A stretch of 64,000 nucleotides of DNA, taken from Syntrophaceae bacterium (lineage in GTDB: Bacteria; Desulfobacterota; Syntrophia; Syntrophales; UBA5619). The notes beneath the pieces were generated by a model. That model did not search any database, was not told the origin of the DNA, and worked only from the letters and a program-made list of their open reading frames with translations. The stretch's first letter is position 1. Every line of letters starts with the position of its first letter. The stretch is taken from positions 2,875-66,874 of the forward strand of contig PLLC01000087.1 of assembly GCA_003141195.1 (NCBI GenBank). Reading direction: 5' to 3'. Below are positions 10,109 through 29,958 of this stretch, one piece after another. The position numbers and the translations under genes were made by a program.

Positions 10109-10121
10109 TGGCGTATCCCCC

Positions 10122-11003: not shown

Positions 11004-11093
11004 TCAGAATCCCTCCTCAAATGCATCCGGTCCCGGCATACAGCCATCCCGGGAACGGATGCATGTTGTGTCGACCCATGCGCCGGGAGATGC

Positions 11094-12236: not shown

Positions 12237-12427
12237 ACCTTCCTCCCTCTTTCTGTTTGATAAGGTTCGATAAAAAACTCACTTTGGGGCAAACCGATTC
12301 AATCTCTAATCCATGCTGTCTCCAGGGAACTGAACGAATGATCACCCCCTTTCATTTGGTGCATTTTGATCCACTTGCATTTCGCCTCTGTCGTTACCAA
12401 CTCACCCTTGTCGAGTGAGGCCGTCGT

Positions 12428-14956
12428 TTAAAGCAGTGGTCTGGATGGGTTAAAGTTTCCCGAGGGATCCCAACGTTGCTTAAGGGCCGTCATTAGACGA
12501 GTCCCACTCCGGTCTTTAAAAATACGATTATGATCTGGTGGTGTTTTACTTATGTCAATAGCATATCCATTCAATTGGAGCGCATTCTGGGCAAGACAGG
12601 CATGGTCATCGTTGCCGAGATAGAGACAACCATTGGCAATATCAATGAGTACCGCGTTGGATGCCATGTCATCAGGTTGATTACTGATCAATTCAAGCAA
12701 ATCTCCCGGAGCTACACCATATTTGACCAGAGGCCCCGTATCGCAACCGGAGCGGACCCAATCCGCCCAGATGGCCGTCCCGTCATTAGATTCAACGGCA
12801 TCGATGGCTGTAAGATCATTGGCCGTTGCGATGCGTTGGAGCAGGCTTGCTTCAATTTGAATATCTTCCGGCAACCCTTCGAATGTACATATTAAATTCC
12901 CCTGCAATGCATCTTTTTCCTTGATCCATAATATGGCTGAGGCATTGAAAGTTTGCTGGTACACGGCTAATCCCGTCCGGATCGCCTGGGCAGGGTCCCT
13001 GACAGGAATAGAATAGGTGGTACGCATTTTGGGGTTGGCCTGTACTTTGAATGTCACGCTCGCAATCATTCCAAGGCAGCCGAATGATCCGATGAACAAT
13101 TTGGGCAAATCATATCCGGCAACATTTTTCACAAGAGGTTTTCCGGCATCGATCACCCGGCCGTCCGGCAGGATCACTGTCATGCAAAGCAGAAGATCCC
13201 TGATCCCCCCATAGCGGGTACGCAGCGGGGCATTGAGATTGGCGGCCACGAACCCGCCGAGGGTTGTTTCATCCCATGGCGAAACCAGTGGAAGATAGAG
13301 ATCCTTCGATTCGAGAAAGCTCCGCAAGTCCCGTAATGTAGTTCCTGCTCCCGCAACGATGTACATATCATCCGGAATGAAAGATATGACGCCATCCAAT
13401 GTTCGACTGGACAGGTAGAGATCCCCGGAAGGCGAAACACCCTCGGGCACCTGATGCCCGACGACAAACACCTTGGACGGGGGTACGGATTCGGCGGCTG
13501 TTCGAATCTTGTCTGCGAGAGTCTGTACGGCCGGGAGGACCCGGCATTGCGGGATGAGCTCAGGATCCGGCGGGACGGTGGGGAACATTTTATCCGGGTT
13601 GAACCGATTCTGCGGATCAAATACGGCCTTGAGATCCCTCATGACAGCAAGTTCATCGGGTGTATGCATAAAACTCATGAATTCGCGCTTTTCAACCCCG
13701 ATCCCGTGCTCGCCCGATATGGTCCCGCCCAGACGCACGGCTTCCTGCATCATGAGCTTGCCTGTCTCACGAACATTCTCCATCAATTTCTCATCGTCCG
13801 CATCCTTTATGAGGATGTGGGGATGCAGGTTGCCATCGCCTGCATGGGAAACGTAATATATGGGCAAGCCACGATCTTCACAGATTCTTGTCATCCGACG
13901 CAGGGCTTCCCCCAACAAGGATCGTGGTACTGTAGGGTCCACCGCTAAAAAAGCAGATGCAAGCCGTGCCAAGGCACCTGCTGTACTTTTCCGGGCAAAC
14001 CAGATGGCGGCTCTCTCTTCTTCGTCCTTTGCGCTGCGAAAGCCAAAGGCGTTAAATCGCTTTATTATTTCTATGATTAGATCGATTTGGGGTTGCAAGC
14101 CGGCCGAATAGCCGTCCACCTCGATGATCAACGCCGCTCCGGCCTGCACCGGCAGACCCGCATGTGTATAATCTTCCAGGATCTCCATGATCTTCTGATC
14201 CATCAATTCAAGCGTGGCCGGGACAATGCCGTTGGCAATGATTGCCGAGACGGCAGAACACGCCTGATCGACGGAATCGAATGCCGCCATCATGGTCATC
14301 ACCGCAGGGGGCTTTTTTAACAACCTGACCGTCGCACTGGTGATCATCCCCAATGTCCCTTCACTCCCGGTCAGCAAGCCGGGCAACTCGATGCCCGGAT
14401 AATCGAGCGCCGGGCCGCCCAGGGTGATGCATTGCGCATCCGGCAGAACCACTTCCATCCCCATCACGTAATTGGTCGTTACGCCATATTTCAAACAATG
14501 AGGTCCGCCGGCATTTTCTGCGATGGTACCGCCCAGGGTCGCCGAACGGTCGCTGCCCGGATCGGGGGGATAATATAAACCCCTCTCGGCAACAGCATCG
14601 GAGAAATGAAGCGTGATGACGCCGGGCTGGAAGCGCGCCCGCAGACCCGTTCCGTCGATTTCCTGGATTTCTTTCATCCGCGAAAATTCTACGATCAAAC
14701 CGCCCTTTGCCGAAACAGCACCCCCGGAAAGACCTGTTCCTGAGCCGCGGGCCGAAATGGGTATCCGGTGATCGCGGCACCACTCCACGACACGGATGAC
14801 ATCCCCTGTATTGGCGGGAAAAACGACCGCCAAAGGCTTTTCCCGGTCCACACCGGCATCAATTTCATATGTCATTAATTCCACAGCGTCACTGATCACA
14901 TGATCGGCAGTGAAAAGATCTATTAAAGACATTATCTTATCAGTGGCAGGATTCAT
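12428..14956 (-). CDS. FAD-linked oxidase: GlcD-like half fused to a GlcE-like second FAD-binding half
   Basis: 842 aa. The N-terminal half has an FAD PCMH domain (ARGSGTGLSGGAV) and an oxidase C-terminal domain. The C-terminal ~350 aa form a second FAD-binding domain. Confidence 0.75.
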   Translation of the reverse strand: MNPATDKIMSLIDLFTADHVISDAVELMTYEIDAGVDREKPLAVVFPANTGDVIRVVEWCRDHRIPISARGSGTGLSGGAVSAKGGLIVEFSRMKEIQEIDGTGLRARFQPGVITLHFSDAVAERGLYYPPDPGSDRSATLGGTIAENAGGPHCLKYGVTTNYVMGMEVVLPDAQCITLGGPALDYPGIELPGLLTGSEGTLGMITSATVRLLKKPPAVMTMMAAFDSVDQACSAVSAIIANGIVPATLELMDQKIMEILEDYTHAGLPVQAGAALIIEVDGYSAGLQPQIDLIIEIIKRFNAFGFRSAKDEEERAAIWFARKSTAGALARLASAFLAVDPTVPRSLLGEALRRMTRICEDRGLPIYYVSHAGDGNLHPHILIKDADDEKLMENVRETGKLMMQEAVRLGGTISGEHGIGVEKREFMSFMHTPDELAVMRDLKAVFDPQNRFNPDKMFPTVPPDPELIPQCRVLPAVQTLADKIRTAAESVPPSKVFVVGHQVPEGVSPSGDLYLSSRTLDGVISFIPDDMYIVAGAGTTLRDLRSFLESKDLYLPLVSPWDETTLGGFVAANLNAPLRTRYGGIRDLLLCMTVILPDGRVIDAGKPLVKNVAGYDLPKLFIGSFGCLGMIASVTFKVQANPKMRTTYSIPVRDPAQAIRTGLAVYQQTFNASAILWIKEKDALQGNLICTFEGLPEDIQIEASLLQRIATANDLTAIDAVESNDGTAIWADWVRSGCDTGPLVKYGVAPGDLLELISNQPDDMASNAVLIDIANGCLYLGNDDHACLAQNALQLNGYAIDISKTPPDHNRIFKDRSGTRLMTALKQRWDPSGNFNPSRPLL

Positions 14957-16254
14957 CCTTGGCTTCCCCGAGTGTAAGATTCTTCCAACACTTCCGCGAT
15001 ATGGAGCACCCGCATTGGGTAGTTTGACCGTTTGGTGCCCGCGATCAATTGCATGTGACAGCCCGTGTTGCTCACAATTAGGAGATCGGCTTTTGCAGCC
15101 TTGATATCCTCCATTTTCAGATCAAGGATGGGATTGGCCGTTTGAGGGTGTACGATGTTATAGACGCCGGCCGATCCGCAGCATAAATCGGGACGTTTGA
15201 GTTCCATCAGTTTCAGCCCGGGGATCAAACGGAGTAATTGGCGCGGTTGTTTGCTGATCTTCTGCACATGGCGAAGATGGCAGGAATCGGAATATACGGC
15301 ACGGGCCTGTACAACCCCATTGGGCGGCTCGTGCAGATGATCCAGCATGAATTCACTGAAATCCTGCACCAGTGCAGAAAAACGAGCGGCCCTGGCGGAG
15401 TAGATCGGATCTTCTGTGAATAGTTCCGCATAGTCCTCTTTCAGCGTCGCGCCACACCCCCCGGCATTACTGATGACCGCTTCAAAACCCTGATCCAGAA
15501 AAGCATCGATGTTTTTGCGGGCCAACTCACTGGCAAATTCGAGGTCACCCTGGTGGAGCTGGGCGGCCCCGCAACAGGTTTGCCCGGCTGGAAAATGCAC
15601 TTCATAACCATTGCGCTGCAGAACACGAATGGTAGCGCGATTGGCCTTGGCTATAAATGCTTCCTGCACGCAACCAATAAAAAAAGCAACCTTGCCTCTT
15701 TTCGTGCCGATGGCCGGAGCGGGAAATGCATAATTGAAATATTCGCGGGATATGGGAGGCAGAAGCAGTTCCATCTGTCGCAGCGCCTGAGGCATGAAAT
15801 GCAATGACCGGAAGAGGGACTGCAAACCGCTGTTTTCATACAGCCAGAGCACGGAAGCCAGTACTTTCAGGCGTTCACGGAAAGGCATCAGCTGCTTGAA
15901 CCCAAGCCATTTCAGACCGGCGGCCGCCAAGCTCTCCTTGGTGTTCTGACGAATGGTCATCTGGGCGGCTTTGATCAGGTGGCCGTACTTTACAGCGGAG
16001 GGACAGGCGGTTTCACAGGCCCGGCATCCCAGGCACAACTCGATGTGTCGGGTAAAAGATGATGGCAGTTCGTCCACTTTTAACCGCCCCTTGGCCACGG
16101 CCCGCATCAAGGCGATACGTCCCCGGGGAGAATCCATTTCCGTGCTGTAAATGTGGTATGTCGGACAGACCTGCAAACACATTCCGCAGTGCAAGCAGCG
16201 GAACAATTCACCTTGTACGGCCGGATCCAGCAACCCTGTCTGAAACTGATGCAT
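14953..16254 (-). CDS. GlcF-like (Fe-S)-binding subunit with CCG domains
   Basis: CLHCGMCLQVCP and CLGCRACETACP ferredoxin motifs plus two Cys-rich CCG-type regions. Overlaps the downstream gene start by 4 nt. Confidence 0.75.
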   Translation of the reverse strand: MHQFQTGLLDPAVQGELFRCLHCGMCLQVCPTYHIYSTEMDSPRGRIALMRAVAKGRLKVDELPSSFTRHIELCLGCRACETACPSAVKYGHLIKAAQMTIRQNTKESLAAAGLKWLGFKQLMPFRERLKVLASVLWLYENSGLQSLFRSLHFMPQALRQMELLLPPISREYFNYAFPAPAIGTKRGKVAFFIGCVQEAFIAKANRATIRVLQRNGYEVHFPAGQTCCGAAQLHQGDLEFASELARKNIDAFLDQGFEAVISNAGGCGATLKEDYAELFTEDPIYSARAARFSALVQDFSEFMLDHLHEPPNGVVQARAVYSDSCHLRHVQKISKQPRQLLRLIPGLKLMELKRPDLCCGSAGVYNIVHPQTANPILDLKMEDIKAAKADLLIVSNTGCHMQLIAGTKRSNYPMRVLHIAEVLEESYTRGSQG

Positions 16255-16275: not shown

Positions 16276-17748
16276 TTATGCTTCCCCGGATCTGCTCCCC
16301 CCGGATTCCGTGGCGATGCCGCAGAGCCTCTTTGCCTTACGCTGCTTCCCCTTCAGATCGACCAGGCGGGAAATCATGATTCGCTGCGCCTGGGGAGAAC
16401 CGGCCCCGTGCATCGATTCCGTGAGGTATCCCACGGCAGCGGACCCCAGCGTGAGGTTTTCGATCAGCCGCAGGATGCGCATCCGGTCCTCCACGGGGAC
16501 GCCTTCGACGCCTCGGTAGTATTTTTCGATCCACTTTCCGACATCCGGTGAACGGAGATCCGCTTCCGAGGGCAGGGTAACCATCAGGCCGCCGGCGATA
16601 TCCTGGGCGAGACGGGCGATTTCGTATGGAAACCGGGTAACGTTCTGCTTGTGCACATTGGCCAGAAGGGTGTCGACCAGGTAAGTTCCGCTGGGTTCCG
16701 GGTGGCCTTCCGAAGCGCAGGCAATGCATCCGCAGTAGAGCGTCTCGTTCAACTGGTTCATCTCGATGATCTTGTCTTTGATGTGGGATGCCTTAGCGGC
16801 CCCGTTGTACTCGGCGATCGTCTGCGTCGCGCCGATCAGCACGTCGCCGACCCCCACCTTGCAGGCATAACTCTGGCGGTGGTAGGAGGCGAATTTTTCT
16901 ACCAGCGGCCCGGTAAACTCATACTCCCGGTACATGAAAACCCTCTCCCAAGGAACGAACAGGTGATCGAAGATCACCAGCGCCTCATGTCCGCCGAAGA
17001 AGGAGTTGCCGACGTCCATGCGACCCGCTTCGAGCTTCCGGGTATCGCAGGACTGGCGTCCGATGATATACGTGATTCCCTGCGTATCGCTGGGTACGGC
17101 AAAGGAGACCGCATAATCCTTGTCCTCCTCGCGCATCGCGACGGTCGGCATGACGATGATCTCATGGGAGTTCACCGCGCCGGTCTGGTGGGCCTTCGCC
17201 CCGCTCACCACGATTCCGTCGGGTCTCTCCTCCACGACATGCAGATAGAGATCCGGGTCGGTCTGCTGCCGGGGCGCGAGGCTTCTGTCCCCCTTGGGAT
17301 CCGTCATCGCGCCGTCGCAAGTCAGGTCGTTTTCCTGGACATGGGCCAGGAATTTCAGGAAGCGCTCATTGTATTTTGTGCCGCATTTGGCGTCGATGTC
17401 GTACGTGACGATGGACAGCGCGTTGAGCGCGTCCATTCCCACGCAACGCTGGAAGCAGCAGGCCGTATGACCTCCCAGCATCCGTCCCATTTTGCTTTTC
17501 TTCACCAGGTCGTCCCTGTTCTGATGGATATGGCAGAAGCGGTTGATCCTCTTGCCGGTCAGATGCGACACGGCGGTCATCAGCTCCGCCCATTCCGGCC
17601 GCCCAGCCAGTTCGTACGTGGCGGCTACGGCATTCATGGAAGGCCGAAGGATCGGATCATCTACCACATTTTCAATCCGCTTGCCGAACATATACACTTC
17701 CAGTTCGAGTTTTCTCAGGCTCTCCTCATATTGCCGGGCCGTCATCAT
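16276..17748 (-). CDS. abfD: 4-hydroxybutyryl-CoA dehydratase / vinylacetyl-CoA isomerase family
   Basis: Very close by eye to Clostridium aminobutyricum AbfD, including CCFQRCVGMD and AMTDPKGDR. Start at MMTARQ (17748). Confidence 0.85.
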   Translation of the reverse strand: MMTARQYEESLRKLELEVYMFGKRIENVVDDPILRPSMNAVAATYELAGRPEWAELMTAVSHLTGKRINRFCHIHQNRDDLVKKSKMGRMLGGHTACCFQRCVGMDALNALSIVTYDIDAKCGTKYNERFLKFLAHVQENDLTCDGAMTDPKGDRSLAPRQQTDPDLYLHVVEERPDGIVVSGAKAHQTGAVNSHEIIVMPTVAMREEDKDYAVSFAVPSDTQGITYIIGRQSCDTRKLEAGRMDVGNSFFGGHEALVIFDHLFVPWERVFMYREYEFTGPLVEKFASYHRQSYACKVGVGDVLIGATQTIAEYNGAAKASHIKDKIIEMNQLNETLYCGCIACASEGHPEPSGTYLVDTLLANVHKQNVTRFPYEIARLAQDIAGGLMVTLPSEADLRSPDVGKWIEKYYRGVEGVPVEDRMRILRLIENLTLGSAAVGYLTESMHGAGSPQAQRIMISRLVDLKGKQRKAKRLCGIATESGGSRSGEA

Positions 17749-17780
17749 AACACAATATCTCCTTTCTTTTTTCCGCCGGG

Positions 17781-17857
17781 TCATCACGCCGCATTCGGAA
17801 CCTGGCATCTGTTGATCAAACGCTGCCAGTCATGGTCCACCTGCGTTGCTCCAAACC
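17781..17857 (-). pseudogene. About 75-bp remnant of a 2-oxoacid oxidoreductase beta-subunit 3' end
   Basis: Aligns by eye to 21373..21450, the 3' end of the intact beta-subunit gene (..catctgttgatcaaacgctgccagtcat..). Confidence 0.55.
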
Positions 17858-17886
17858 TGCTCACCCATCAAAACCATGAACGATTA

Positions 17887-19395
17887 TCACGTCGTAATAC
17901 CATCCCGCCAGATACCCATCTCGAAGTACTTGTTGACTTCGGTGTTCGTTCGGACTTCACCATTGGCCACCTTGATGATCAGGGTGAGCAATTCCTCCGT
18001 CAGCGTTTGCATATCCTTTCCACTCAGCAGAGCACCGGCATCGAAGTCGTTCCATTTTCTTTTATGCTTAAAGATGTCGCTGTTCGTGGTCACCCGCAAC
18101 ACTGGCGCCGCAAACCCTCCTGGAGTTCCGCGCCCGGTTGTGAAGAGAATGAGTGTGCAGCCCGCGGCGACCTGGCCGGTGATGCTTACCAGGTCATGCC
18201 CCGGCGCTTCAAAAAGATTAAGGCCGGGAACCTTTAACCTCCTGCCAAAGCGAATGACATCGGCCACCTTGGATTTGCCTCCTTTTTCGATACAACCCAG
18301 GGATTTCTCTTCCAGCGTGGAAAGCCCACCCGCGAAATTTCCCGTGGTGGGATTTCTGCTGACATCGATGCCGTATTTCTTGTAATAAGCTTTGGAGTCG
18401 TTGATCAGCCCGACGATGTCGCGAAACACCCTTTCATCGATCGCCCGATCCATTAGAATCTGCTCGGCGCCGAACATCTCCGGTACTTCCGTCATCACCG
18501 AAGTACCGCCCTGGGCGGTCAGGATGTCGGTGATCTCCCCCACCAGCGGATTTGCGGTCAGACCGGAAAAACCGTCCGAGCCTGCGCAGTTGCTGCCCAC
18601 AATCAGTTTGGATATAGGAACCGTTTCCCGTTGATAGGTTAGGGCGTGGGCGTACAGTTCCCGCAGAAGCTTCAGAGACTCTTCGAATTCATCCTCAACA
18701 TCCTGGTAGGCGATAAATTTGACCCGGGTGGGATCAAAATCTCCGAGGCTCGGTTTAAAGGATGTCAGGTCATTGATCTCACACCCCAGACCGACGAAAA
18801 GGACACCCGCCGCATTGGGGTTTTTCGACATTCCCGCAAGGATCGACCGGGTATAGGACAAATTGAGACCGCTCTCGGCACAACCACACTCGTGGGTAAA
18901 GGGGATGAAGCCGTCGAAATTGGCCGCTGCCGGCATCTCCTTTTCCGCCAAAGTAGCCAGTTTTTCGATGGGCCCGTTGACGCAAAATACGGTGGGAATA
19001 ATATAGATGTAGTTACGAATCCCCACACCACCATCGTTTCGCCGGTAGCCGTTGAAGGTTAATTCTCTGGTGATCAGTGGTTTCATGGCCGGAGCGCGTT
19101 CCGGATGGTACTCATAGGACAGTGCCTCAGTGAGGGCAGATTTCACGTTGTGGGTGTGTACCCATTCCCCTTCCTCGATGTCCCGGGTTGCATAACCGAT
19201 CGGATAACCGTACTTGTGTACCACGCTGCCCTTCTCGATTCTTCGCAGGGCAATTTTGTGGGGAACAGGGATATTAACCTTCACCAAAATGCTTTTTCCT
19301 TTGATATTGATGGTCTCCCCATTCGCAAGCAGTCTGGTCGCCACTGCAACGGGGTCTTTTTCATTGATGACAATCACATCTTTCGTTAACTCCAT
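17887..19395 (-). CDS. UxaA/GarD-family dehydratase, copy 2
   Basis: 502 aa, colinear with copy 1 and about half the residues identical by eye. Same SAF N-terminus and TTGRGTPGG motif. Confidence 0.8.
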   Translation of the reverse strand: MELTKDVIVINEKDPVAVATRLLANGETINIKGKSILVKVNIPVPHKIALRRIEKGSVVHKYGYPIGYATRDIEEGEWVHTHNVKSALTEALSYEYHPERAPAMKPLITRELTFNGYRRNDGGVGIRNYIYIIPTVFCVNGPIEKLATLAEKEMPAAANFDGFIPFTHECGCAESGLNLSYTRSILAGMSKNPNAAGVLFVGLGCEINDLTSFKPSLGDFDPTRVKFIAYQDVEDEFEESLKLLRELYAHALTYQRETVPISKLIVGSNCAGSDGFSGLTANPLVGEITDILTAQGGTSVMTEVPEMFGAEQILMDRAIDERVFRDIVGLINDSKAYYKKYGIDVSRNPTTGNFAGGLSTLEEKSLGCIEKGGKSKVADVIRFGRRLKVPGLNLFEAPGHDLVSITGQVAAGCTLILFTTGRGTPGGFAAPVLRVTTNSDIFKHKRKWNDFDAGALLSGKDMQTLTEELLTLIIKVANGEVRTNTEVNKYFEMGIWRDGITT

Positions 19396-19440
19396 GTTTT
19401 GCCTCCATTATTTCTTCTGAGAAAACCCCCTGCTCCGGGC

Positions 19441-19584
19441 CGAGACCATCACAAATTACCCCTGGGCAAAGTTGACGACATTGACTGCATTGAAAATCAG
19501 GACAAATCCCAGGGCAACCAAGGCATATATTGAGCCCATGGCTAGACCTGCGGCTACCATTTGAAGATTCGTAGACCAATCCAT
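19441..19584 (-). pseudogene. livH: livH 5' fragment (42 codons, then stop)
   Basis: Translates to MDWSTNLQMVAAGLAMGSIYALVALGFVLIFNAVNVVNFAQG-stop, almost identical to the LivH N-terminus at 10878..11003. Confidence 0.8.
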
Positions 19585-19677
19585 TCAAGGTCCTCCTTAG
19601 AGGCATCCAGTCCCCGCATGTAGCCATGCAGCGGGACCGGATGCCTCTCGTGTCTATACGGGCGCGTCGAGAGGTGC

Positions 19678-20820
19678 CTATTTCTTACCCACACTGATGA
19701 TCTTCAGGAGTTTCGGCTGGCCCTTCTCGATCTCAACAATGCTCACCGAACTCAAGCCGTCGCCGTTCGGCGTAAATGAGAAGGTGCCGAGTACGCCTTC
19801 ATATCCCTGAGTGGCCAGGATGGCTTGACGGATTTTGTCGCGATCTTCCCCGGCCTTCTTGATGGCGTTAACCAGGATCTTCAGACCGTCATACGTCCAA
19901 GAGCTGAGCATGTCGGGTTCCTCATTGTATTCCTTCTTGTAGGCATTGCAGTAACGCTTGTTCGCCTCGCTCTGTCCCGGCACGGCATCGACCGCGGCCC
20001 AGATCCCCTCGGCGGCCTCCTGGGCAAGGTTCAGGCTGTCGTTCGATGCGCTGCTGGGCGAACCGAGATACTTGAAGGGGGAGCCGAGTTGGCGTACTTG
20101 GCGCTGGATCACCGCCGTGTCGGGGGAGGGAGAGTAGACGATCATGACCTGCGCCCCGGCATTCTTCAGTGAGAGCAGGAATGCGGTGTAATCCTTGTCT
20201 TTGGGCGTGAACCTCTCCCTTTTAACCATGTTAAGGCCATATTCCTTTGCATATTTTTCGACCAAGTCTCCGCCGCCTTGTCCAAAGGCCTCGGTATCGT
20301 TCAGGATTCCTATTTTGGTGAACTTAGTGTCTTCCTTGATGTACTTCACCATGGCGCTGGCGGCAATAGTGTCATCGGGCCGTACGCGGAACAACCAGGG
20401 GTTCCCCTGCTTGGTGAGGTTGACATTGGTGCCGCCGATTATGGTGGGGATGCCGTAGTTCTTGATGGCATCCGAAGTGGCAAGAATCTGTGTACTTCTT
20501 ACGGAGCCGACCAACGCCAGTACCTTCTCCTGCTCCACGGCCTTCTGTAGCGCCGCCAGTGCACCGGGGTTAGAGGAACGGTTATCCACCATCACGAGGT
20601 TGATCTTCTTTCCATTTATGCCGCCGGCCGCATTGATCTCCTTGAGGGCCAGTTTGATGGACTTGATCTGGAGGGCGCCTTCTGCCGCTGAGTCACCGGT
20701 AATCGGCGGAGTAAATCCAATCTTGATTTCTTCAGCCGCCATTCCAATACCGCTGCCGAAAATGGCCACGATCATGACGGATAAGAAAGTAACCGATAAG
20801 ATGCGCTTTACGTTTGTCAT
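19678..20820 (-). CDS. Periplasmic substrate-binding protein (LivJ/K-like), copy 2
   Basis: Start at MTNVKRILSV (20820). The first 22 residues are identical to copy 1; overall about three quarters are identical by eye. Confidence 0.8.
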   Translation of the reverse strand: MTNVKRILSVTFLSVMIVAIFGSGIGMAAEEIKIGFTPPITGDSAAEGALQIKSIKLALKEINAAGGINGKKINLVMVDNRSSNPGALAALQKAVEQEKVLALVGSVRSTQILATSDAIKNYGIPTIIGGTNVNLTKQGNPWLFRVRPDDTIAASAMVKYIKEDTKFTKIGILNDTEAFGQGGGDLVEKYAKEYGLNMVKRERFTPKDKDYTAFLLSLKNAGAQVMIVYSPSPDTAVIQRQVRQLGSPFKYLGSPSSASNDSLNLAQEAAEGIWAAVDAVPGQSEANKRYCNAYKKEYNEEPDMLSSWTYDGLKILVNAIKKAGEDRDKIRQAILATQGYEGVLGTFSFTPNGDGLSSVSIVEIEKGQPKLLKIISVGKK

Positions 20821-21104
20821 ACCTTCCTCCTCTTTCTGTTTGATAAGTTTCGATAGAACTCGCTCTGTGGCGAACCGATTCAACCTCCAATCCATGCTGT
20901 CTCCAGGGAACTGAACGAACGATCACCCCCTTTCACTTGGTGCATTCCGCTCCATTTGCATTTCGCCTCTGTCGTTACCAACTCTTAAGATATAGGTGTA
21001 GAATTTGACAAAAAATGCCAGTAAATACCAATTTTTAACTCTAGTGGCCGTTTTAACAAAATATTTTGCAGTATGTTCATCAACCCCTTGTCGAGTGCGG
21101 TAGA

Positions 21105-21338
21105 TTAAAGCAGCGGTCTGGATGGGTTAAAGTTGCCCGAGGGTCCCAACGTTGCTTAAGTGCCGTCAATAGAGGAGTCCCACTCCGGCCGTTGGGCCAG
21201 TTCGTACGTGGCGGCTACGGCATTCATGGAAGGCCGAATGATCGGATCATCCACCACATTTTCAATCCGCTTGCCGAACATATAGACTTGCAGCTTGAGT
21301 TTTCTCAGGCTTTCCTCATATTGCCGGGCTGTCATCAT
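21105..21338 (-). pseudogene. abfD: abfD 5' fragment joined out of frame to the last ~27 codons of a GlcD/E-type oxidase gene
   Basis: The 60-aa ORF MMTARQYEESLRKLKLQVYMFGKRIENVVDDPIIRPSMNAVAATYELAQRPEW then diverges. 21105..21188 aligns to 12428..12512, and 21189..21338 aligns to 17599..17748. Confidence 0.8.
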
Positions 21339-21372
21339 GGCAAAATATCTCCTTTCATTCTTTCCGCCGGGG

Positions 21373-22266
21373 TCATCCCACCGCTCTCGGGGCTTGGCAT
21401 CTGTTGATCAAACGCTGCCAGTCATCATCCACCCGCATTTGCATGCGGTCGCGTTCCTCCACGGACATCTTTTTGAACCGGCCCTGATGTTTCAGATAGG
21501 CATCCACGCCTTCCTTCTCAGGCATGGAACTCAACTGCCATGTATCCCCACCGAACACCTCATAAAGCGGAAACACGCGGCTTTTAATGGCCTGCCTGGC
21601 AACCTCGATGGACAGCTCCGTGGCATGCCGCCAGCCGGTCGGGCAGGAGGCAAAGAGATGGATAAATCGCGAACCCTTGATATTTTTCGCTTTTTCCAGC
21701 TTCTCTTTCAGATCCTCCGGCGCGCCGATGCTGGCAGTGGCCGCGTAGGGAATGCGGTGCGCAGCCATGATCTCCACCATGTTTTTCTTCCTCTGACCCT
21801 TCCGGGCCGAATCGGGTGTGGTGGTGGTCCACGCGCCGGCCGGTGTCGCCGAGGAGCGCTGGATACCCGTGTTCATGTAGGCTTCGTTGTCGTAGCAGAT
21901 AAAAAGGATATCATCGTTTCGTTCCACAACACCGGAAAGCGGCTGAAAACCGATATCGAAGGTGCCGCCGTCGCCTGCAAAGGCCAGGACGGTCGTATGA
22001 TCGTTTCCCTGAATGGTCAAACCGGCCTTGATCCCGGCGGCAACGGACGCGGTGGCTCCAAAGGCGACCGAAACCACCGGCACGGTCAGGCAGGTGTAAG
22101 GGTAAATGCCGATAAGGCTTGACCAGCATCCAGCCGTCATCACCACAATCGTATCCTCACCCAGGACCGACAATGTTTGTTGCATGGCCACGGTGGCGCC
22201 GCAGCCGGGACAACCATAGTGACCCGGTATGAACAGTTCCCTCTTCGCCCGGATTTGTTCACTCAT
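21373..22266 (-). CDS. 2-oxoacid:ferredoxin oxidoreductase beta subunit (TPP-binding)
   Basis: CPGCG and GDGGTFDIG motifs. ATGA overlap with the alpha subunit stop. Confidence 0.85.
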   Translation of the reverse strand: MSEQIRAKRELFIPGHYGCPGCGATVAMQQTLSVLGEDTIVVMTAGCWSSLIGIYPYTCLTVPVVSVAFGATASVAAGIKAGLTIQGNDHTTVLAFAGDGGTFDIGFQPLSGVVERNDDILFICYDNEAYMNTGIQRSSATPAGAWTTTTPDSARKGQRKKNMVEIMAAHRIPYAATASIGAPEDLKEKLEKAKNIKGSRFIHLFASCPTGWRHATELSIEVARQAIKSRVFPLYEVFGGDTWQLSSMPEKEGVDAYLKHQGRFKKMSVEERDRMQMRVDDDWQRLINRCQAPRAVG

Positions 22267-23426
22267 GGCAACACCTCCGCCCAAAGCGACATCCCTGCTT
22301 CGACTGCGTTCCCGTATCCGGATATCGCCTGTCGTACCAATGGGATGATCGTATCCACGGTGACATCATTTCCGCCGACACCCGCAACAAAGCCTGTTAC
22401 TTTTAAATCCCCCCGGTGCCCGAAAAGGCCCGCCTTCACCTCCTGGGCCACGATGCCCTCGGCCCCGAAAGAGACATCCCGATCGATGACGATCACATGT
22501 TTGACCTTTGCAATCGCCCTTTGCAACCCTTCCAGGGGAAAGGGCCGGATCATCGCAAGCCGCAGGCTGCCGACCTTTAACCCCTCTTCCCGCAGCCGGT
22601 CGACCGCCAGCCGGATAGTGCCGGTGGCCGTACCGATGCTAACGATGCACAGGTCGGCATCCTCCGTTCGATATGCTTCCACGGTCTTGTGCAATCGGTT
22701 GAAATGGCTGTTGTATTTCTCGGCCACCTGATCCCAGAGCCTTGCCACCGCAAGCGTGTCGCCCTGGCGTTTGTACTTGATGGAGCTGAAGAGGTCTGCC
22801 CCGCATACAATGCTGAAGGTCTTGGGATCGTTCACATCCAGCTTGAGCGACGCATGATAGGGGGGAAGAAAGAGATCCACCGTCTCCTGATCCGGCACAT
22901 CCAGCGGCTCGGAGGTATGGGTTAAATAAAATGCGTCCAGATTGATCATGACCGGCAAAAGCGCCTGTTCGGCAACCGCATAGGCGATCAAAATGGCGTC
23001 GAGCACATCCTGGGCATCGGCGCAGTAATACTGAATCCAGCCGGTGTCGCGCTGGGACAGCGAATCGGTGTGGTCGCAGTACAGGTTCCAGGGGGGGGCC
23101 AAGGCGCGGTTGCAGTTGACCATGACGACCGGCACCCGCTCGCCGGCGGTAAAATGGAGCATTTCATGCATGTAGGCCAGTCCCTGCGAGGAGGTTGCCG
23201 TAAAGGTCCTGGCGCCTGCCAGCGACGCGCCCATGCAACTGGACATGGCCGTGTGCTCCGACTCCACGGGCATGTACTTGGCCTTCAGTTCGCCCCGACC
23301 GATGATATCGGCCAGACTCTCGACAATCACGGTCTGTGGGGTGATCGGATACGCCGAGACCACTTGAACACGGGCCAGTTTTACGGCCATCGTAGCGGCT
23401 TCGGTCCCCATCATGACTTTCTTCAT
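22263..23426 (-). CDS. 2-oxoacid:ferredoxin oxidoreductase alpha subunit
   Basis: MKKVMMGTEAATMAVKLARVQVVSAYPITPQT is a typical N-terminus. ATGA overlap with the upstream gene. Confidence 0.85.
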   Translation of the reverse strand: MKKVMMGTEAATMAVKLARVQVVSAYPITPQTVIVESLADIIGRGELKAKYMPVESEHTAMSSCMGASLAGARTFTATSSQGLAYMHEMLHFTAGERVPVVMVNCNRALAPPWNLYCDHTDSLSQRDTGWIQYYCADAQDVLDAILIAYAVAEQALLPVMINLDAFYLTHTSEPLDVPDQETVDLFLPPYHASLKLDVNDPKTFSIVCGADLFSSIKYKRQGDTLAVARLWDQVAEKYNSHFNRLHKTVEAYRTEDADLCIVSIGTATGTIRLAVDRLREEGLKVGSLRLAMIRPFPLEGLQRAIAKVKHVIVIDRDVSFGAEGIVAQEVKAGLFGHRGDLKVTGFVAGVGGNDVTVDTIIPLVRQAISGYGNAVEAGMSLWAEVLP

Positions 23427-24625
23427 ACGCTCATATCCTCCATTGTGATCACCCCCCGGGGGCATTCATAGGCACAGATGCCGCATCCCTTGCAGTGGTC
23501 CAGGTCGACCGCAACGGCGATATTCTCCCCATCCGGCCGGATACTGGCGTCGGGACAATAGGAGACACACTGCAAACAGAGGTTACAGGTGCCGCACGAG
23601 AGGCAGCGTTCCGCTTCCTGCAGTGCCCGCTCCCGGTCCCATGTTACCTCCTGTTTGGTCTCCGTCTCTGCAGCAGGACCGGAGACCGGAAAACGCTCAA
23701 TCTTTATATTTTCGATGCTTACTGCCTGCAGGGGGAGGTCCGGGGCCGGCTGTGCAAGATCCACCGGGCGCAGACCATCGAAAACCTTCCGGGCCAGCAG
23801 ACGGCCTGCGGCAATGTAATGGGCAATCATGGGCGCCTTGAATGGTGTTAGGTTTTGCGGCAATTTTACGGAGATGATGCCTCCGGTGGCGGTTTCTTCA
23901 TCAAAGGGATTGCAAGCGACCGCACCGGTTGGCACGCTAAAGTCTTCCGAAAGTCCGGTCGGATCCAAAATGACGAGGTCTGCGTTCGACAGCAGTTCGC
24001 CGGGTGTGTCGAAATCGATTACGGCGCCGGTTTCAAGCCTGATATCGGCAAGACGGATCAAGCGGTTGATTTCATGAGACAGCACCTGCGGCTCTATTTT
24101 CCCCGGCGAAAGATCGACAAGCGCCCCGCCCGCCTGGCCGGCGGGGTCCAGGACAACGACCCGGCATCCCCAACAAGCCAGATAAAATGCACAGGAGAGC
24201 CCCAGAGGGCCGGAACCGATGACCGTGACCCGCTGATCGGTTTTATCACTTTTCTCAATTGTGACATCCGTCGCGAGATCACCCAGAAACCGCTCCACCT
24301 TTTGGATGGATATCGTCCGATCTATTGTTCTGCGGATACATTTGGTCTGGCAAGGGTGATAGCACAGGCGGCCGGTCAGACCGGGCAGGGGGTTATAGGC
24401 CAGCAGCAGGGCGAGACCGCCTTCAATATCCCCACGGTTCATGGCACCCAGATGGCGCGGAATCGGAATGCCCGCCGGACAGTTCTGGCTGCAGGGTGCC
24501 AGTTTGTCTGCGACCAGCGGTGTTACATAACGCCAGTCGCCCGTCTGGTTCCAAGCCATGGTGCCGATCGTGGTCGGCGCTGTCGGAAGCTCCGACAACC
24601 TTTGAATGATGATTTTAGTCTGCAT
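23423..24625 (-). CDS. Fusion protein: GltD-like Fe-S/FAD-NAD(P) N-terminal region plus C-terminal 2x[4Fe-4S] ferredoxin (delta-subunit-like)
   Basis: N-terminus has CSQNCPAGIPIP...GRLCYHPCQTKC (GltD small-subunit-like). This is followed by a Rossmann VTVIGSGPLGLSCAFYL and a C-terminal CLSCGTCNLCLQCVSYCP...CKGCGICAYECP. Confidence 0.65.
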   Translation of the reverse strand: MQTKIIIQRLSELPTAPTTIGTMAWNQTGDWRYVTPLVADKLAPCSQNCPAGIPIPRHLGAMNRGDIEGGLALLLAYNPLPGLTGRLCYHPCQTKCIRRTIDRTISIQKVERFLGDLATDVTIEKSDKTDQRVTVIGSGPLGLSCAFYLACWGCRVVVLDPAGQAGGALVDLSPGKIEPQVLSHEINRLIRLADIRLETGAVIDFDTPGELLSNADLVILDPTGLSEDFSVPTGAVACNPFDEETATGGIISVKLPQNLTPFKAPMIAHYIAAGRLLARKVFDGLRPVDLAQPAPDLPLQAVSIENIKIERFPVSGPAAETETKQEVTWDRERALQEAERCLSCGTCNLCLQCVSYCPDASIRPDGENIAVAVDLDHCKGCGICAYECPRGVITMEDMSV

Positions 24626-25193
24626 TCACATCTCCTGATATCCTGAATACTGCCTGATATGCCGCTTCGGCGGCGGCCATGTTCTGTTTAGGGCTCACCG
24701 GTACGCCAGTTTCAATGGCCTCCAGCAGGTTGGAAAGCGCAAGGTCGCCGGAAACCCGGGCATAGGCGCCGAGGATGACGGTGTTAATGATCGGGGCGGT
24801 CTTCGAGCCCAAGCCGTGATGAAGCGCTATTTTCACGGCGTCCACGCCGGCCACTCGAAAGGAGCCCTTGATGGGGTTCTGATTCTCATTCTCCTTGCAA
24901 TTGAGCAGGATCAGTGCATCCGGCTTGGCGCCATGAGCCACATCCACTTTGCGCAGCAGCGAAAAATCCAGCACGATGACGACATCAGGGTTCTTGATGT
25001 CTCCGCGCTCGACAATGGGAGCGCTATCCAGCCTGACGAATGCGGAGACGGCAGCTCCTTTTCGTTCCATACCGAAGGAAGGAAAAGCCTGAACGTAGAG
25101 CCCCTGTTTGAAGTAGGCATGGGCTAAAATTTTTGAAGCGACCACAGCTCCCTGCCCCCCTCTGCCATGGAACCTAATGCCGACCATATTCAT
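24615..25193 (-). CDS. 2-oxoacid:ferredoxin oxidoreductase gamma subunit
   Basis: GRGGQGAVVASKILA motif. Start at MNMVGIR (25193). Confidence 0.8.
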   Translation of the reverse strand: MNMVGIRFHGRGGQGAVVASKILAHAYFKQGLYVQAFPSFGMERKGAAVSAFVRLDSAPIVERGDIKNPDVVIVLDFSLLRKVDVAHGAKPDALILLNCKENENQNPIKGSFRVAGVDAVKIALHHGLGSKTAPIINTVILGAYARVSGDLALSNLLEAIETGVPVSPKQNMAAAEAAYQAVFRISGDVNAD

Positions 25194-25224
25194 ATTCCTC
25201 TCAGTTTTAGCGGTGTCCCGAAAT

Positions 25225-26031
25225 TTATAGTTCACTCAATGAACTTGAGATTTTCCCAGCCGTTTCCGATACCAACTTTGCAAGCGTGTCGCTCGTCTCT
25301 GCAGTTACCCGATTTTTCGGAGCTGAAATACTGATGGCTGCCACACATTCCCCCTTAGAGTTCAATATCGGTGCGCCAACACAGTAGACCCCTACCAGGG
25401 CCTCTTCATCATCGACTGCCACCTTCCTGACCCTGACTTTCTCGATCTCCTTAATCAATTTATCTACAGAAGTAATCGTATTTTGAGTGTATTTTTTTAA
25501 AGATCTATTCAGTCTGTAAATCTGCCGGATATCTTCATTGCTGAAGTATGACAGCAATATCTTGCCGGTTGCGGCACAGTAGCCTGCGAATCTTGCGCCA
25601 GCCGTCGTGGAAATTCGAAGGAGCGCTTCAGATTCCAATCGGTAGATGTAGCGAATTCCATTATATTCCCACACAGCCGCGTTCACCGTTTCCCCGCACC
25701 TCTCGTAGAGTTTCATCAGAAAGGGGGCCATGGCCATGCGAAGAAATCTCTCTCGCTTGGAGTCCATTCCGATTTCCAGCGTTCGCACGCCAAGACCGTA
25801 CATTTTTGTTTTTCTGTTCTGCTGGATGAATTTTCGTGCCACGAGGGTACTCAGGACCCGATGAACCGTTCCCTTCATCATGCCGAGTTTCTGGCAGATC
25901 TCCGTAATGGAGAGATCCCGGCTCTGGTCAATCACTAACTCAAGAATTAAAAGCGCTTTATCAAGTGAGGTTACTCGGTATTTATTTTCGGAATTCGACT
26001 GAGTCTTCGATTTTGATGGCACCTCTTTCAT
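25225..26031 (-). CDS. IclR-family transcriptional regulator
   Basis: N-terminal wHTH (SLDKALLILELV...LSITEICQKLGMMKGTVHRVLSTL) and a C-terminal IclR effector domain. Start at MKEVPSK (26031). Confidence 0.85.
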   Translation of the reverse strand: MKEVPSKSKTQSNSENKYRVTSLDKALLILELVIDQSRDLSITEICQKLGMMKGTVHRVLSTLVARKFIQQNRKTKMYGLGVRTLEIGMDSKRERFLRMAMAPFLMKLYERCGETVNAAVWEYNGIRYIYRLESEALLRISTTAGARFAGYCAATGKILLSYFSNEDIRQIYRLNRSLKKYTQNTITSVDKLIKEIEKVRVRKVAVDDEEALVGVYCVGAPILNSKGECVAAISISAPKNRVTAETSDTLAKLVSETAGKISSSLSEL

Positions 26032-26056
26032 GGCAAAAAACCTCCATAAGCGATGG

Positions 26057-26147
26057 TTCCGTATATTGTGAAGATTTTTTACCATACGGAAAACTATAGT
26101 CAAGCAAAATGTTCCGCATCTTTAATATTGAGTTCTAATATACGGAA
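26057..26147. promoter_or_regulatory. Candidate operator: two inverted pairs of TTCCG(T/C)AT boxes upstream of iclR
   Basis: TTCCGTAT 26057..26064 pairs with ATACGGAA 26084..26091. TTCCGCAT 26112..26119 pairs with ATACGGAA 26140..26147. Spacers are 19-20 nt. Confidence 0.45.
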
Positions 26148-26602
26148 CAATCGGTTGATCGGATCATTGAATCCTTATCACGCTGGAGGATTGGTCTGGA
26201 GGCTTACGGCACCTACTTTCCCCTCTTCCGATTGGAGGTGATTCCTCCTATCAATCATTCCATAGCAGTCTATTGAGCAGATGTTCCCAGCAGGGGCACA
26301 CTCCACCGCAGGGTGCTCGGCGCAGCTGACGAGTGTGCGTTTCATGGCTGCCCCTGCCCTGATCGGGTTTTCAAATGGCAAAATGCTCTCTTTTGGTACT
26401 TTCATTTCATCGCTATCGGCATCCGTACGTGCTTCGAGGCAGCGATCTCGCATCACATCAATGGATGGGGGATTTTTCAGCGCTATCGCGCATTGTTCAA
26501 TATTGATCCATCATTTCATGCAGATGGAGCATGAACATGTTTCTGCGGATTGGTCTATAGTAGGTCCGATTTTGCTTCTCAAGCGATATTCGCGTCTTCT
26601 TG

Positions 26603-26801
26603 TTCCGTATATTAGAACTGATTATTAAGAATACGGAAAAATTTGCTTGACTATGATTTTCCGTATGGTAAATATTTTCACCAATATACGGAATCACTCA
26701 TGGAGGTTTTTTTTACCATGAAGCTGGTACCATCAAAATCGAAGACTCGGTCGCGTCCCGAAAATGTATGCCGAGAGACCTCGCGTGATAAGGCATTTTA
26801 G
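26603..26801 (+). repeat. Inverted, diverged copy of the iclR operator/promoter region plus the first ~27 codons of iclR
   Basis: The same box pairs occur at 26603..26638 and 26659..26693. They are followed by ATG 26718 encoding MKLVPSKSKTRSRPENVCRETSRDKAF-stop, compared with IclR MKEVPSKSKTQSNSENKYRVTSLDKAL. Confidence 0.75.
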
Positions 26802-27111: not shown

Positions 27112-27150
27112 GACGAAATGAATCTAACAGCGAAAGGAGGAACAGGACAC

Positions 27151-28041
27151 ATGATGAAAAAAGTATTGCGTGGGGTTATCTTTCTGTTTGCGATTGCCGT
27201 TGGCGTACCATTGATGTTTTCAGGGATCCTGGGCGCGGCGGAATCGGGAAGTGCGGGACCGGATAAGATCGTCCAGGGCGGAGCGAATCTGACTGTGGCC
27301 GAGTCCAAGAGGTTGATCGGCAAGGCTGTGGCCCAGATGCCGATCGTCAAGAATGCCCTTGAAAACGGCATGATCATTATCATCAAGGGGACAACCACTC
27401 GCTACGTGGCCGAGGAGATCACGGGGCAGAAAATCGTTCCTGCGGAATTTGTGACGGGGAGACTTATGCCGAAACAGCCCGAGTTACTCCCCAAGGGAAA
27501 GTCCGTTAACAACGTGATTCTTGAGAAAGGCAAGTTACTTGATATCCCGCTTCCTGACGCCGTGAAGAAGTTGAAACCAGGCGACGTGGTCATGAAGGGG
27601 GCGAATGCCCTGGACTACAAGAACAAGTTAGCGGCGGGCAATATTATGGTCGGTCCCCACCTGGGTTTTGTGCCGGGTCCGGATGGGGGAACGACAGGGA
27701 TCACAATGCCCTTCATCGTGGCACGCAAGGTTCACCTCGTCATTCCGGTCGGCCTCGAGAAGCAGGTTGTAGGGGATATAGTGGATGTGACCTTGAAGAT
27801 GCGTGAGCCGATAGAGTCGTTGAACGTTCTTCCTTCGATGTGGCTCCTCACGGGCGAGATCGTCACGGAGTTGGAGGCCATTAAAATGCTGACCGGTGCA
27901 ACTGCCTTTCAGGCCAATGCAGGGGGTGTCAACGGTGCGGAAGGTGGATCATGGCTTGTTTTCAGGGGAACCCGTGATCAAGTAGAGAAGGCCATGGAAT
28001 TGGCAAAATCCGTGAAAGGGGAACCGCCTTATACGGAATAG
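27151..28041 (+). CDS. Hypothetical exported protein
   Basis: AGGAGG RBS, then MMKKVLRGVIFLFAIAVGVPLMFSGILGAAES signal-like N-terminus. No family recognised. Confidence 0.5.
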   Translation: MMKKVLRGVIFLFAIAVGVPLMFSGILGAAESGSAGPDKIVQGGANLTVAESKRLIGKAVAQMPIVKNALENGMIIIIKGTTTRYVAEEITGQKIVPAEFVTGRLMPKQPELLPKGKSVNNVILEKGKLLDIPLPDAVKKLKPGDVVMKGANALDYKNKLAAGNIMVGPHLGFVPGPDGGTTGITMPFIVARKVHLVIPVGLEKQVVGDIVDVTLKMREPIESLNVLPSMWLLTGEIVTELEAIKMLTGATAFQANAGGVNGAEGGSWLVFRGTRDQVEKAMELAKSVKGEPPYTE

Positions 28042-29329: not shown

Positions 29330-29383
29330 GCGTTGTGTCTCGGCCCTGGTCTCAAGATCAAGGAAAAGAATAATGGGAGGCGT

Positions 29384-29743
29384 ATGAAAATGGTTAGAAA
29401 AAGAAGGATGTCTGCAAAGATATTCGGTTATCTGTTATCGCTGCTTCTCCTCAGCGTGTTTACAGCGCAGCTACTTTTTGCGGCCGACGTATTCAATTCT
29501 GACAAACACATTAAGACAGGGCTCAACTGCGAGAGCTGCCATGGGGCGGCGAAAGTGGCTGCGGGGGCAGAGGTCGGCATGGCCAAGTGTCTGAGTTGTC
29601 ACGGACCGTATGAAAAACTTGCGAAGCGGACGGAAACAATGACCCGTAACCCGCATACAAGTCCGCATTACCTCGACTGCAATGTGTGCCACCATGGACA
29701 CAGCGCTGACAAAAACGATTGCGACCGTTGTCACGGAAAATAA
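29384..29743 (+). CDS. Small periplasmic tetraheme c-type cytochrome (c3/STC-like)
   Basis: Signal peptide plus four CxxCH motifs (CESCH, CLSCH, CNVCH, CDRCH) in 119 aa. GGGAGG RBS before ATG 29384. Confidence 0.85.
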   Translation: MKMVRKRRMSAKIFGYLLSLLLLSVFTAQLLFAADVFNSDKHIKTGLNCESCHGAAKVAAGAEVGMAKCLSCHGPYEKLAKRTETMTRNPHTSPHYLDCNVCHHGHSADKNDCDRCHGK

Positions 29744-29958
29744 GGTTCATCCGGCAAGCAAACATTTTACCCGGAAGTAGGTATCTATGAAGATCAGGCC
29801 GGGGGAGGTTGTCCCAGAAAACGGCGGCATGACCCCTGCAAAGGGTTCATCGAAGGACCGTCATACTGTCCTGCTGATGGCAGGAATCTTGATAGCATTT
29901 TTGTGGCAAAACGTTGGCGGATAAGACTATTCACAAATCAGGAGGCAGTGCTGTGGGC

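Follow-up and report, generated by a model that had tools for sequence, protein, structure and literature searches.

How did a 64-kb stretch of Syntrophaceae DNA (the window, whose positions serve as coordinates throughout) come to hold two intact genes, livJ2 and uxaA2, among stubs of their neighbours between an oxidoreductase gene, porB, and abfD? The segment concerned, 17781–21439, had been described in a sequence-only reading as a second, gutted copy of the block running from livH to abfD downstream of it, left by an old duplication or recombination between related loci and by later deletions. We hold, with moderate confidence, that it is the remnant of a second, diverged abfD-glcF-glcDE-livJ-livH segment, and that the two versions were joined by recombination and then pruned. 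From the source genome the window alone was read. Every gene of the region is on the minus strand; Pfam agreed with the identity of every gene, and gene starts were taken from public gene calls.

Self-blastn of the window recovered three blocks of matching order and strand: 10857–12403 with 19438–20984 (80.6% over 1552 bp, E = 0), 12405–12512 with 21085–21188 (88.9%, E = 3e-32), and 17589–17847 with 21179–21439 (88.5%, E = 3e-90). The sequence-only reading had reported such colinear, same-strand blocks by eye and had proposed a self-alignment as the check; the computed alignment returned them at E values from 0 to 3e-32. Its list of blocks also stood, with small corrections. The livH 5' end runs for 42 codons from ATG 19584 to TAA 19458–19456, the livJ paralogue (livJ2, 19678–20820) is complete and has its leader copy, the glcDE part consists of the last 27 codons and the stop with a 1-bp deletion, and the abfD part counts 53 codons (21179–21338) where about 50 had been given. 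The porB relic, given as ~75 bp at 17781–17857, measures 67 bp (17781–17847). The abfD start was also corrected: the open reading frame (ORF) 16276–17808 was rejected as abfD because its extension crosses the porB' relic, and the true start is ATG 17748, as in gene calls in public assemblies.

The downstream counterpart, copy A (10857–12512; self-blastn and Pfam), comprises the glcDE 3' end, the leader, livJ1, a spacer with a hairpin, and the livH 5' end, all in intact genes. It is colinear with the single-copy clusters L176 and L174 of related genomes, and with L003 from the leader on. The third block forms a pair of direct repeats, HA and HB, of ~260 bp each, which consist of the porB 3' end and the abfD 5' end and stand on both sides of the module. 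HB belongs to the upstream copy, copy B. It begins with the last 22 codons and stop of intact porB (21373–21439, self-blastn), which run contiguous with L176 porB (92.9%), and passes through the porB-abfD intergenic region with its ribosome-binding site (21339–21372) into the abfD' stub. HA begins with the porB' relic, 22 codons (of 297) and a stop, directly upstream of the real abfD (83.6% to 21373–21439), and continues with the intergenic region and the first 53 codons of functional abfD (17589–17780, self-blastn).

Identity between the two copies was not uniform and ranged from 73 to 94%. High values were found for the abfD 5' end, the glcDE 3' end, the livJ leader and the livJ signal-peptide codons (91.9%, 93.9%, 91.5%, and 93.8%, respectively), and lower values for the porB 3' end, the porB-abfD spacer, mature livJ, the livJ-livH spacer and the livH 5' end (83.6%, 75%, 78.6%, 73%, and 82%, respectively). 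The closest relatives of the blocks were likewise mosaic. HB showed 93.8% identity to L176, compared with 87.6% to HA, and the abfD' stub showed 94.4% to L176 abfD, compared with 91.9% to the functional gene (17589–17748). The livH' stub was nearer to L006 livH (90%) than to copy A livH (82%). The livJ2 signal-peptide codons resemble livJ1, and its mature core belongs to a different orthologous group, with 92% identity to L171 and 86% to L167, compared with 79% to livJ1, which is itself closest to L174 (95%). Since the closest relatives are mosaic in this way, recombination between diverged clusters is favoured over duplication in place followed by drift.

One scar of the pruning lies inside copy B. 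The abfD' stub (53 codons of 490; sequence and translation) and the glcDE' stub (21107–21188, last 27 codons of 842 and stop, 93.9% to 12428–12512) overlap in their BLAST blocks by a 10-bp microhomology, CCGGAGTGGG, at 21179–21188. The same 10 bp are common to abfD codons 50–53 and to a glcDE site 27 codons before its end; the L176 abfD allele matches at 10/10 positions, copy A abfD at 9/10, and copy A glcDE at 10/10. The junction retains one copy of CCGGAGTGGG, and ~5076 bp are gone, which held the remainder of abfD, glcF and the greater part of glcDE. By its bases, this joint is the signature of a deletion between short direct repeats. Where the repeats are only a few kb apart, such deletions form a recognised class that does not depend on RecA (PMC7145654). 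The window resembles it in that ~5.1 kb were lost exactly between two 10-bp copies; unlike the typical case, the repeat has only 10 bp and the ~5-kb spacing is at the long end, and the deletion is reconstructed from its scar.

Across the scar, abfD' reads out of frame into glcDE' and gives a 60-residue chimeric ORF (21156–21338), which Pfam matched to HpaB_N at E = 1.6e-13, and the 1-bp deletion breaks the glcDE' frame. Between glcDE' and the leader, copy B has a 100-nt AT-rich intergenic stretch (20985–21084) that copy A lacks; the two stubs, this stretch and the leader together fill 20821–21338. Parts of the stretch align with the spacer between glcDE and livJ in L176 and L174 and with that between abfD and livJ in L003; it is therefore an ancestral spacer lost from copy A, and an insertion of 100 extra bases into copy B was rejected on the same alignments. 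As a candidate promoter the stretch was also dropped: a sigma-70 scan gave no coding-strand site there, the number of sites in the region was not above that in shuffled sequence, and no sigma-54 match was seen in the stretch by eye. At the far end of copy B, the livH' stub (19438–19584) keeps 42 of 293 codons and then stops at TAA, at a position where copy A reads GAG; homology to livH runs on to 19438.

The stubs abfD', glcDE', livH' and porB' are dead. When they died can be approached from their substitutions. Against L176 abfD, abfD' shows 6 synonymous and 3 nonsynonymous differences. The livH' stub shows 20 and 2 against copy A livH (synonymous divergence, dS, of 1.56), and 9.5 and 1.5 against L006 livH. 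Pooled against their nearest working homologues, the two stubs carry 15.5 synonymous and 4.5 nonsynonymous differences, where ~13 of 20 would be expected to be nonsynonymous after neutral evolution for half the divergence time (P = 5e-5). As the differences are almost all synonymous, both genes appear to have been working until recently, and the divergence predates the gutting. Judged from these substitutions, the truncation of abfD' and livH' is recent relative to the divergence of the two versions, between which dS is 0.26–1.56. The porB' relic shows 2 synonymous and 6 nonsynonymous differences from L176 (ratio of nonsynonymous to synonymous divergence, dN/dS, ~0.75; few sites); it looks neutral and, on these few sites, may be an older scar than the other stubs.

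A different reading of the same substitutions is that the stubs were kept for a function, with the abfD' start and 60-residue ORF, or the 42-residue LivH', serving in translational coupling or as small proteins. Both abfD' and livH' retain a ribosome-binding site and start codon and are called genes in public assemblies, their substitutions are strongly biased to synonymous, and abfD' stubs follow porB in three lineages. Recent truncation explains the synonymous bias equally, however, and the length of the abfD' stub varies by lineage (53, ~97, and ~242 codons). The glcDE' stub is frameshifted, and livH' has a two-step stop codon, with further nonsynonymous changes among its final codons. We therefore regard a retained function as very improbable.

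Two genes of the module escaped this decay. LivJ2 is an intact HAAT-family periplasmic binding protein of 380 residues with a signal peptide (Pfam Peripla_BP_6, E = 2e-66). It shows 76% amino acid identity to LivJ1 (dN/dS 0.23), which also matches Peripla_BP_6 and has an N-terminal signal peptide. LivJ2-type proteins form a group of their own, in which P0001–P0005 are 84–91% identical to LivJ2 and 69–73% to LivJ1. UxaA2 (17887–19395) is an intact GarD/UxaA-family dehydratase of 502 residues with the Pfam domains SAF, GD_AH_second and GD_AH_C, and it matched galactarate dehydratase (PDB 6u7l) at E = 8e-68. With dN/dS of 0.17 for livJ2 against L171 and 0.12 for uxaA2 against L086, both full-length genes are, by their codons, under purifying selection.

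The dehydratase pair had been counted as part of the same duplication, with about half of its residues differing. The proteins are indeed 51% identical; at the DNA level only a weak match was found (6091–6696 with 18019–18623, ~67%), and dS is saturated. Sequence divergence thus places UxaA1 and UxaA2 as ancient paralogues, a pair that lies outside the event behind the repeats. The gene closing the type-1 clusters described below shares 90% identity with UxaA1. UxaA2 has orthologues of 78–87% identity in 19 metagenome loci, usually in an MFS-UxaA2-DUF362-cyclase module after porB. UxaA2 shares its three domains with the known GarD/UxaA dehydratases (PDB 6u7l; altronate dehydratase), and its usual partners, an MFS transporter, a DUF362 protein with a twin-arginine translocation (TAT) signal and a cyclase-family protein, differ from those in the Escherichia coli gar and uxa operons. 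These three partners have left no trace in the window.

The borders of uxaA2 show how it is joined to its surroundings. Upstream, between livH' and uxaA2 (19396–19437), stand first ~10 nt of filler and then ~30 nt that share homology with the regions preceding uxaA2 orthologues (alignment with L167, L086, L087, and L096). Downstream (17848–17886), alignment showed ~22 nt homologous to the downstream flank of the orthologues, followed by 17 nt of filler. Because uxaA2 carries short homologous flanks with filler on each side, both joints are illegitimate.

These joints bear on the reading in which no second cluster was involved. Structures of this kind arise most commonly by tandem duplication with later deletion, and an in-genome duplication starting at porB codon −22, with divergence and gene conversion, insertion of uxaA2 at the joint and gutting of the upstream copy, would account for the shared order and orientation, for the direct repeats flanking the module, and for the mutual closeness of the A and B versions of glcDE', the leader and the signal-peptide codons. 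The livH'-porB' joint expected from it is, however, interrupted by a complete foreign uxaA2 with ~30 and ~22 nt of its own flanks. For each of the livJ2 core, livH' and HB, other genomes hold closer relatives than the window does, and all eight related clusters that span the porB-abfD junction (8/8) are single-copy, which would demand many independent losses of an old duplication. The near absence of neutral decay in abfD' and livH', despite the dS between the copies, also counts against it. On balance we consider a tandem origin unlikely. Of the history first proposed, an old duplication or recombination between related loci with later deletions, the gutted second copy and the deletions thus stood; a uniformly old age did not, given block identities of 73–94%, the mosaic of closest relatives and the recent truncation of abfD' and livH'.

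For comparison, related loci were collected by a scan with AbfD as query (one genome per species) and by looking up the contexts in which GlcDE and LivJ2 orthologues occur. These loci come from metagenome-assembled genomes, some with frameshifts (L005), and were annotated mainly by tblastn with window proteins. In eight of them porB abuts a full abfD, which is the single-copy state, and L003, L176 and L174 are colinear single-copy clusters. Type-1 clusters (L003, L005, L006, L176, and L174) read IclR-porGDAB-AbfD-(variable genes, GlcF-GlcDE)-LivJ1-LivH-LivMG-LivF-UxaA1. Type-2 clusters (L086, L087, L093, L095–L098, and L100) read porB-(abfD' stub in some)-MFS-UxaA2-DUF362(TAT)-cyclase-(AbfD). 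In a variant (L167–L170 and L166), porB is followed by a 242-residue abfD', UxaA2, DUF362, cyclase, a LivJ2-type gene, LivH, LivMG and LivF; UxaA2-type and LivJ2-type genes share the cluster in L167–L170, and the uxaA2-type gene of L166 is a fragment only. The window combines elements of type 1 and type 2.

Could the window then descend from a type-2 cluster, with uxaA2 already between porB and abfD, the MFS slot overwritten by an abfD...livH copy, and DUF362-cyclase deleted? The module MFS2-UxaA2-DUF362-cyclase follows porB in five independent loci and follows an abfD' stub in a sixth (L086), abfD comes after the module in L098 and L100, and livJ2 occupies the exact position of the MFS gene in those loci. 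An abfD' stub likewise comes after porB in L086, where it is fused to the MFS gene, and in L167, and by its dN/dS the porB' relic seems older than the remaining stubs. The por and abfD genes of the window are nevertheless nearer to type 1 (L176 92.9% and L003 84% at the nucleotide level) than to canonical type-2 clusters such as L096 (~79% for the aligned porA-porB segment). The window shows no trace of MFS2, DUF362(TAT) or cyclase, no porB' relic was detected before abfD in L098, and the alleles of copy B do not simply duplicate those of copy A. We judge such a descent improbable.

The layout itself is reproducible. At least 24 contigs with the exact UxaA2 and at least 24 with the exact AbfD were read from ENA and JGI assemblies, and all of them show the window layout; the index lists the exact UxaA2 in 41 blocks and the exact AbfD in 32, and 24 contigs were read per look-up. 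Six aligned contigs were 99.7–100% identical to the window and had no single-nucleotide polymorphisms in the stubs, and the strains are near-clonal. Look-ups of these two exact proteins, UxaA2 and AbfD, yielded no strain without the insert. A mis-join in assembly or binning was considered, because assemblers can be confused by repeats of 88% identity and the source is of metagenome type. The recurrence of the 21.5-kb layout at 99.7–100% identity in aligned contigs from several samples in both ENA and JGI makes an artefact extremely improbable, and repeats that differ by 12% over a length of 260 bp are too diverged and too short to be collapsed.

A mobile element (transposon, insertion sequence or integron cassette) was also rejected as the carrier of the module. 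Pfam gave no transposase or integrase domain for the larger ORFs scanned from 5 to 34839 and no match for the plus-strand ORFs of the region, and self-BLAST showed no inverted repeat at the borders. The repeats that do flank the module are 260-bp gene fragments.

Taken as recombination and pruning, the history might have run as follows. Recombination of related clusters would have placed a second version head-to-tail with the present one, its source most likely being DNA of a related lineage. The porB/abfD region would have served as the homology, with illegitimate joints at the other ends, which would leave the 260-bp direct repeat on both sides. A first deletion of ~5.1 kb across CCGGAGTGGG would then have removed abfD, glcF and glcDE. 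At least one further deletion would have truncated livH at codon 49 and fused it with the upstream region of uxaA2. The survivors would be livJ2 and uxaA2, two genes different in kind from their downstream counterparts. We infer the order of these events, and likewise the foreign rather than in-genome origin of the second copy.

Several observations weigh against this history. No un-gutted intermediate genome was found, and the contexts of GlcDE and LivJ2 orthologues gave no un-gutted donor. Nor was there a donor in which livJ2 is followed by uxaA2, the order in L167 being uxaA2-DUF362-cyclase-livJ2. Copy A itself is the closest relative of parts of copy B (glcDE', leader, and signal-peptide codons; 92–94%), which requires either a close donor or gene conversion within the genome. 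The blocks are short (67–260 bp), which leaves the best-match patterns statistically soft. Values of dS against L176 differ only modestly between the por genes (0.23–0.30) and the copy A genes (0.30–0.54), and sliding identity along the por operon against nine relatives showed no clear breakpoint. The low dN/dS of the stubs, finally, could also reflect present-day constraint rather than recent truncation.

A definition of homology-facilitated illegitimate recombination is available (PMC3240628), and of its hallmarks the window shows illegitimate joints and mosaic ancestry; no donor, crossover in por or direction of transfer was found. A comparable process has been proposed for the effector-immunity arrays and rhs loci of the Vibrio cholerae type VI secretion system, where modules anchored on a conserved upstream region have an illegitimate other end, leave leftovers behind and form mosaic clusters (PMC5361080). 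As in that displacement of modules, a conserved porB/abfD region flanks the module of the window, and both uxaA2 joints are illegitimate. Unlike in V. cholerae, the window holds a metabolic operon with one displacement-like event and no array, and the mechanism is read from scars alone.

The surviving genes sit in a long series of genes of one orientation. Upstream of the module lie the IclR regulator gene (25225–26031), porG (24615–25235), a gene for a Fer4_20/NAD-binding subunit (23423–24625), porA (22263–23426) and intact porB (21373–22266), which encodes the TPP-binding beta subunit of a 2-oxoacid:ferredoxin oxidoreductase (Pfam TPP_enzyme_C). Downstream of it follow functional abfD of the HpaB/AbfD family (16276–17748, 490 residues), a glcF-like gene (14953–16254), the gene for a fused GlcD/E-like flavin adenine dinucleotide (FAD) oxidase, glcDE (12428–14956), livJ1 (11094–12236), livH (10122–11003), a livM-livG fusion (8273–10108), livF (7516–8280), uxaA1 (5960–7456) and a LarA_N/DUF362-like gene (4645–5919). 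As no terminator-like site was found on the coding strand between porB and abfD, the module is probably read within one long operon.

Between the IclR and LarA_N genes there is a single livH, a single livM-livG fusion and a single livF, and there are two binding proteins. We infer that LivJ2 uses this one LivH-LivMG-LivF translocator, and that LivJ1/UxaA1 and LivJ2/UxaA2 are pairs for different substrates, hydroxy-acids or sugar-acids. One translocator and one set of redox enzymes, read from one long operon, would then serve two binding proteins and two dehydratases, and the range of hydroxy-acids or sugar-acids used has probably widened. The E. coli livHMGF system 'has two SBPs' (substrate-binding proteins) with different specificities, LivJ and LivK (PMC5807212). 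The window is like E. coli livJ/livKHMGF in having two paralogous secreted LivJ-type proteins for one livH-livM/G-livF set, with one binding-protein gene lying apart. It is unlike it in that livJ2 came with a gutted operon copy and stands 7 kb upstream among stubs, beside a dehydratase gene, and in that, to judge by neighbours of GarD/UxaA and GlcD type, the ligands are unlikely to be branched-chain amino acids.

The repeat also includes non-coding parts. The livJ leader copy (164 nt, 20821–20984, 91.5% to 12237–12403) contains the motifs GAAAGGGGGTGATCGTTC ... GGATTGGAGATTGAATCGG, which are conserved upstream of livJ-type genes in both cluster layouts (also in L003, L171, L166, and L167) and which occur in the window only in these two leaders. 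The motifs may be a regulator binding site or promoter. A riboswitch or other structured RNA in the leader or region was dropped as a candidate: Rfam gave no match over 17500–21600 even at E ≤ 1, and RNAalifold on six livJ leaders gave a weak consensus fold of −4.2 kcal/mol. The sole Rfam match in the whole window at the gathering threshold was a thiamine pyrophosphate (TPP) riboswitch (RF00059, 64.2 bits) at 36174–36280 on the plus strand. The livJ2-livH' spacer (19588–19677) folds into a long hairpin with a minimum free energy of −46.8 kcal/mol (z = −5.5). The livJ-livH spacer of copy A (11006–11096) folds likewise (−40.6 kcal/mol, z = −3.0) at only ~73% sequence identity. The predicted hairpin may be an mRNA element that lets the binding protein be expressed uncoupled from the permease.

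Other repeats were seen at the edge of the region and elsewhere in the window. At the IclR end, 25955–26150 and 26600–26794 form an inverted repeat (81% identity) that spans the first ~25 IclR codons and ~120 bp upstream. Its second copy lies upstream of the divergent gene X (27118–28041) and an MFS gene (28124–29329), and the IclR region of L003 also resembles this second copy (69%). The repeat may be a duplicated regulatory region or another relic. Gene X (plus strand, 307 residues, no Pfam match) is conserved, and its position differs per related cluster: it lies upstream of IclR in the window, between abfD and livJ in L005 (12523–13455) and L006 (7320–8180), after uxaA1 in L003 (18225–19221), and after uxaA2 in L094 (11905–12801). 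A 280-bp direct repeat (3921–4200 with 33453–33732, 73% identity) links the unannotated ORF 3720–4277, for which Pfam returned nothing, to a ResB-like cytochrome c biogenesis gene (33238–34839) in its 5' part; the ORF may, by this similarity, be a partial ResB paralogue.

Further along, a gene on the plus strand (29914–32700) encodes a multihaem cytochrome of 928 residues with cytochrome c3/c7 and MtrC-like domains. It has an internal tandem repeat of ~300 bp (30601–30904 with 30913–31225, 65% identity) and lies downstream of a small c3-type cytochrome gene (29333–29743). Two dienelactone-hydrolase-family paralogues, 49292–50284 on the minus strand and 51753–52499 on the plus strand, form an inverted pair (84% nucleotide identity over 750 bp) around a radical-SAM/SPASM gene with a SEC-C motif (50367–51710). 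Extra short copies of the edge of this repeat lie at 47740–47817 and 49094–49124, and a Fic/DUF4172 gene (48113–49288) adjoins the pair.

Gene relics at module borders were also common in the related clusters. L005 has two uxaA2 fragments just upstream of livJ (13646–13786), L006 a gutted uxaA1 (13207–13464), L094 a 47-bp livJ 3' relic after uxaA2 (11603–11649), L001 an abfD 3' relic after an insertion (3028–3218), and L166 a truncated uxaA2 (1613–2143). In L086, directly after porB, a 532-residue ORF (2137–3735) carries an AbfD N-terminal stub (HpaB_N, residues 25–118) in frame with the MFS transporter; it could be a real fusion or read-through of the stub. L176 (3635–7429) and L001 (~2000–11760) have an extra block of IclR, HpcH/HpaI aldolase, acetaldehyde dehydrogenase and DmpG-like genes between abfD and glcF, which the window lacks and which hints at a pathway ending in aldol cleavage of a 2-keto-3-deoxy acid.

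A broader claim, which we put forward tentatively and regard as doubtful, is that the porB/abfD junction is a recurrent docking site for 'specificity cassettes', each a transporter component with a UxaA-type dehydratase, in related catabolic clusters of uncultured Syntrophales-like Desulfobacterota. Cassettes would be swapped by homology-anchored recombination, with the abfD' and porB' stubs as footprints; the incoming binding protein and dehydratase would be kept, and the resident translocator and redox enzymes re-used. Consistent with this, the uxaA2 module follows porB directly in at least six independent loci, and abfD' stubs of 53, ~97 and ~242 codons follow it in the three lineages. The border relics of uxaA2, uxaA1, livJ and abfD in L005, L006, L094 and L001 point the same way.

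The locus offers a readable record of a catabolic operon of an uncultured anaerobe that probably merged with a diverged version of itself and then pruned its redundant genes. Recombination, microhomology deletion and pseudogene stubs are well-known processes, and no concept is changed by it. For annotation, the 60-residue 'HpaB_N' ORF and the 42-residue LivH stub, both called genes in public assemblies, should be marked as fragments of pseudogenes. Loss of the module could occur through the 260-bp direct repeats. LivJ2 and UxaA2 types share a cluster elsewhere, as do LivJ1 and UxaA1, which suggests matched pairs of uptake protein and dehydratase and may guide substrate screening. If the docking-site proposal were true, the junction would provide these bacteria with a general way of retuning their substrate range.

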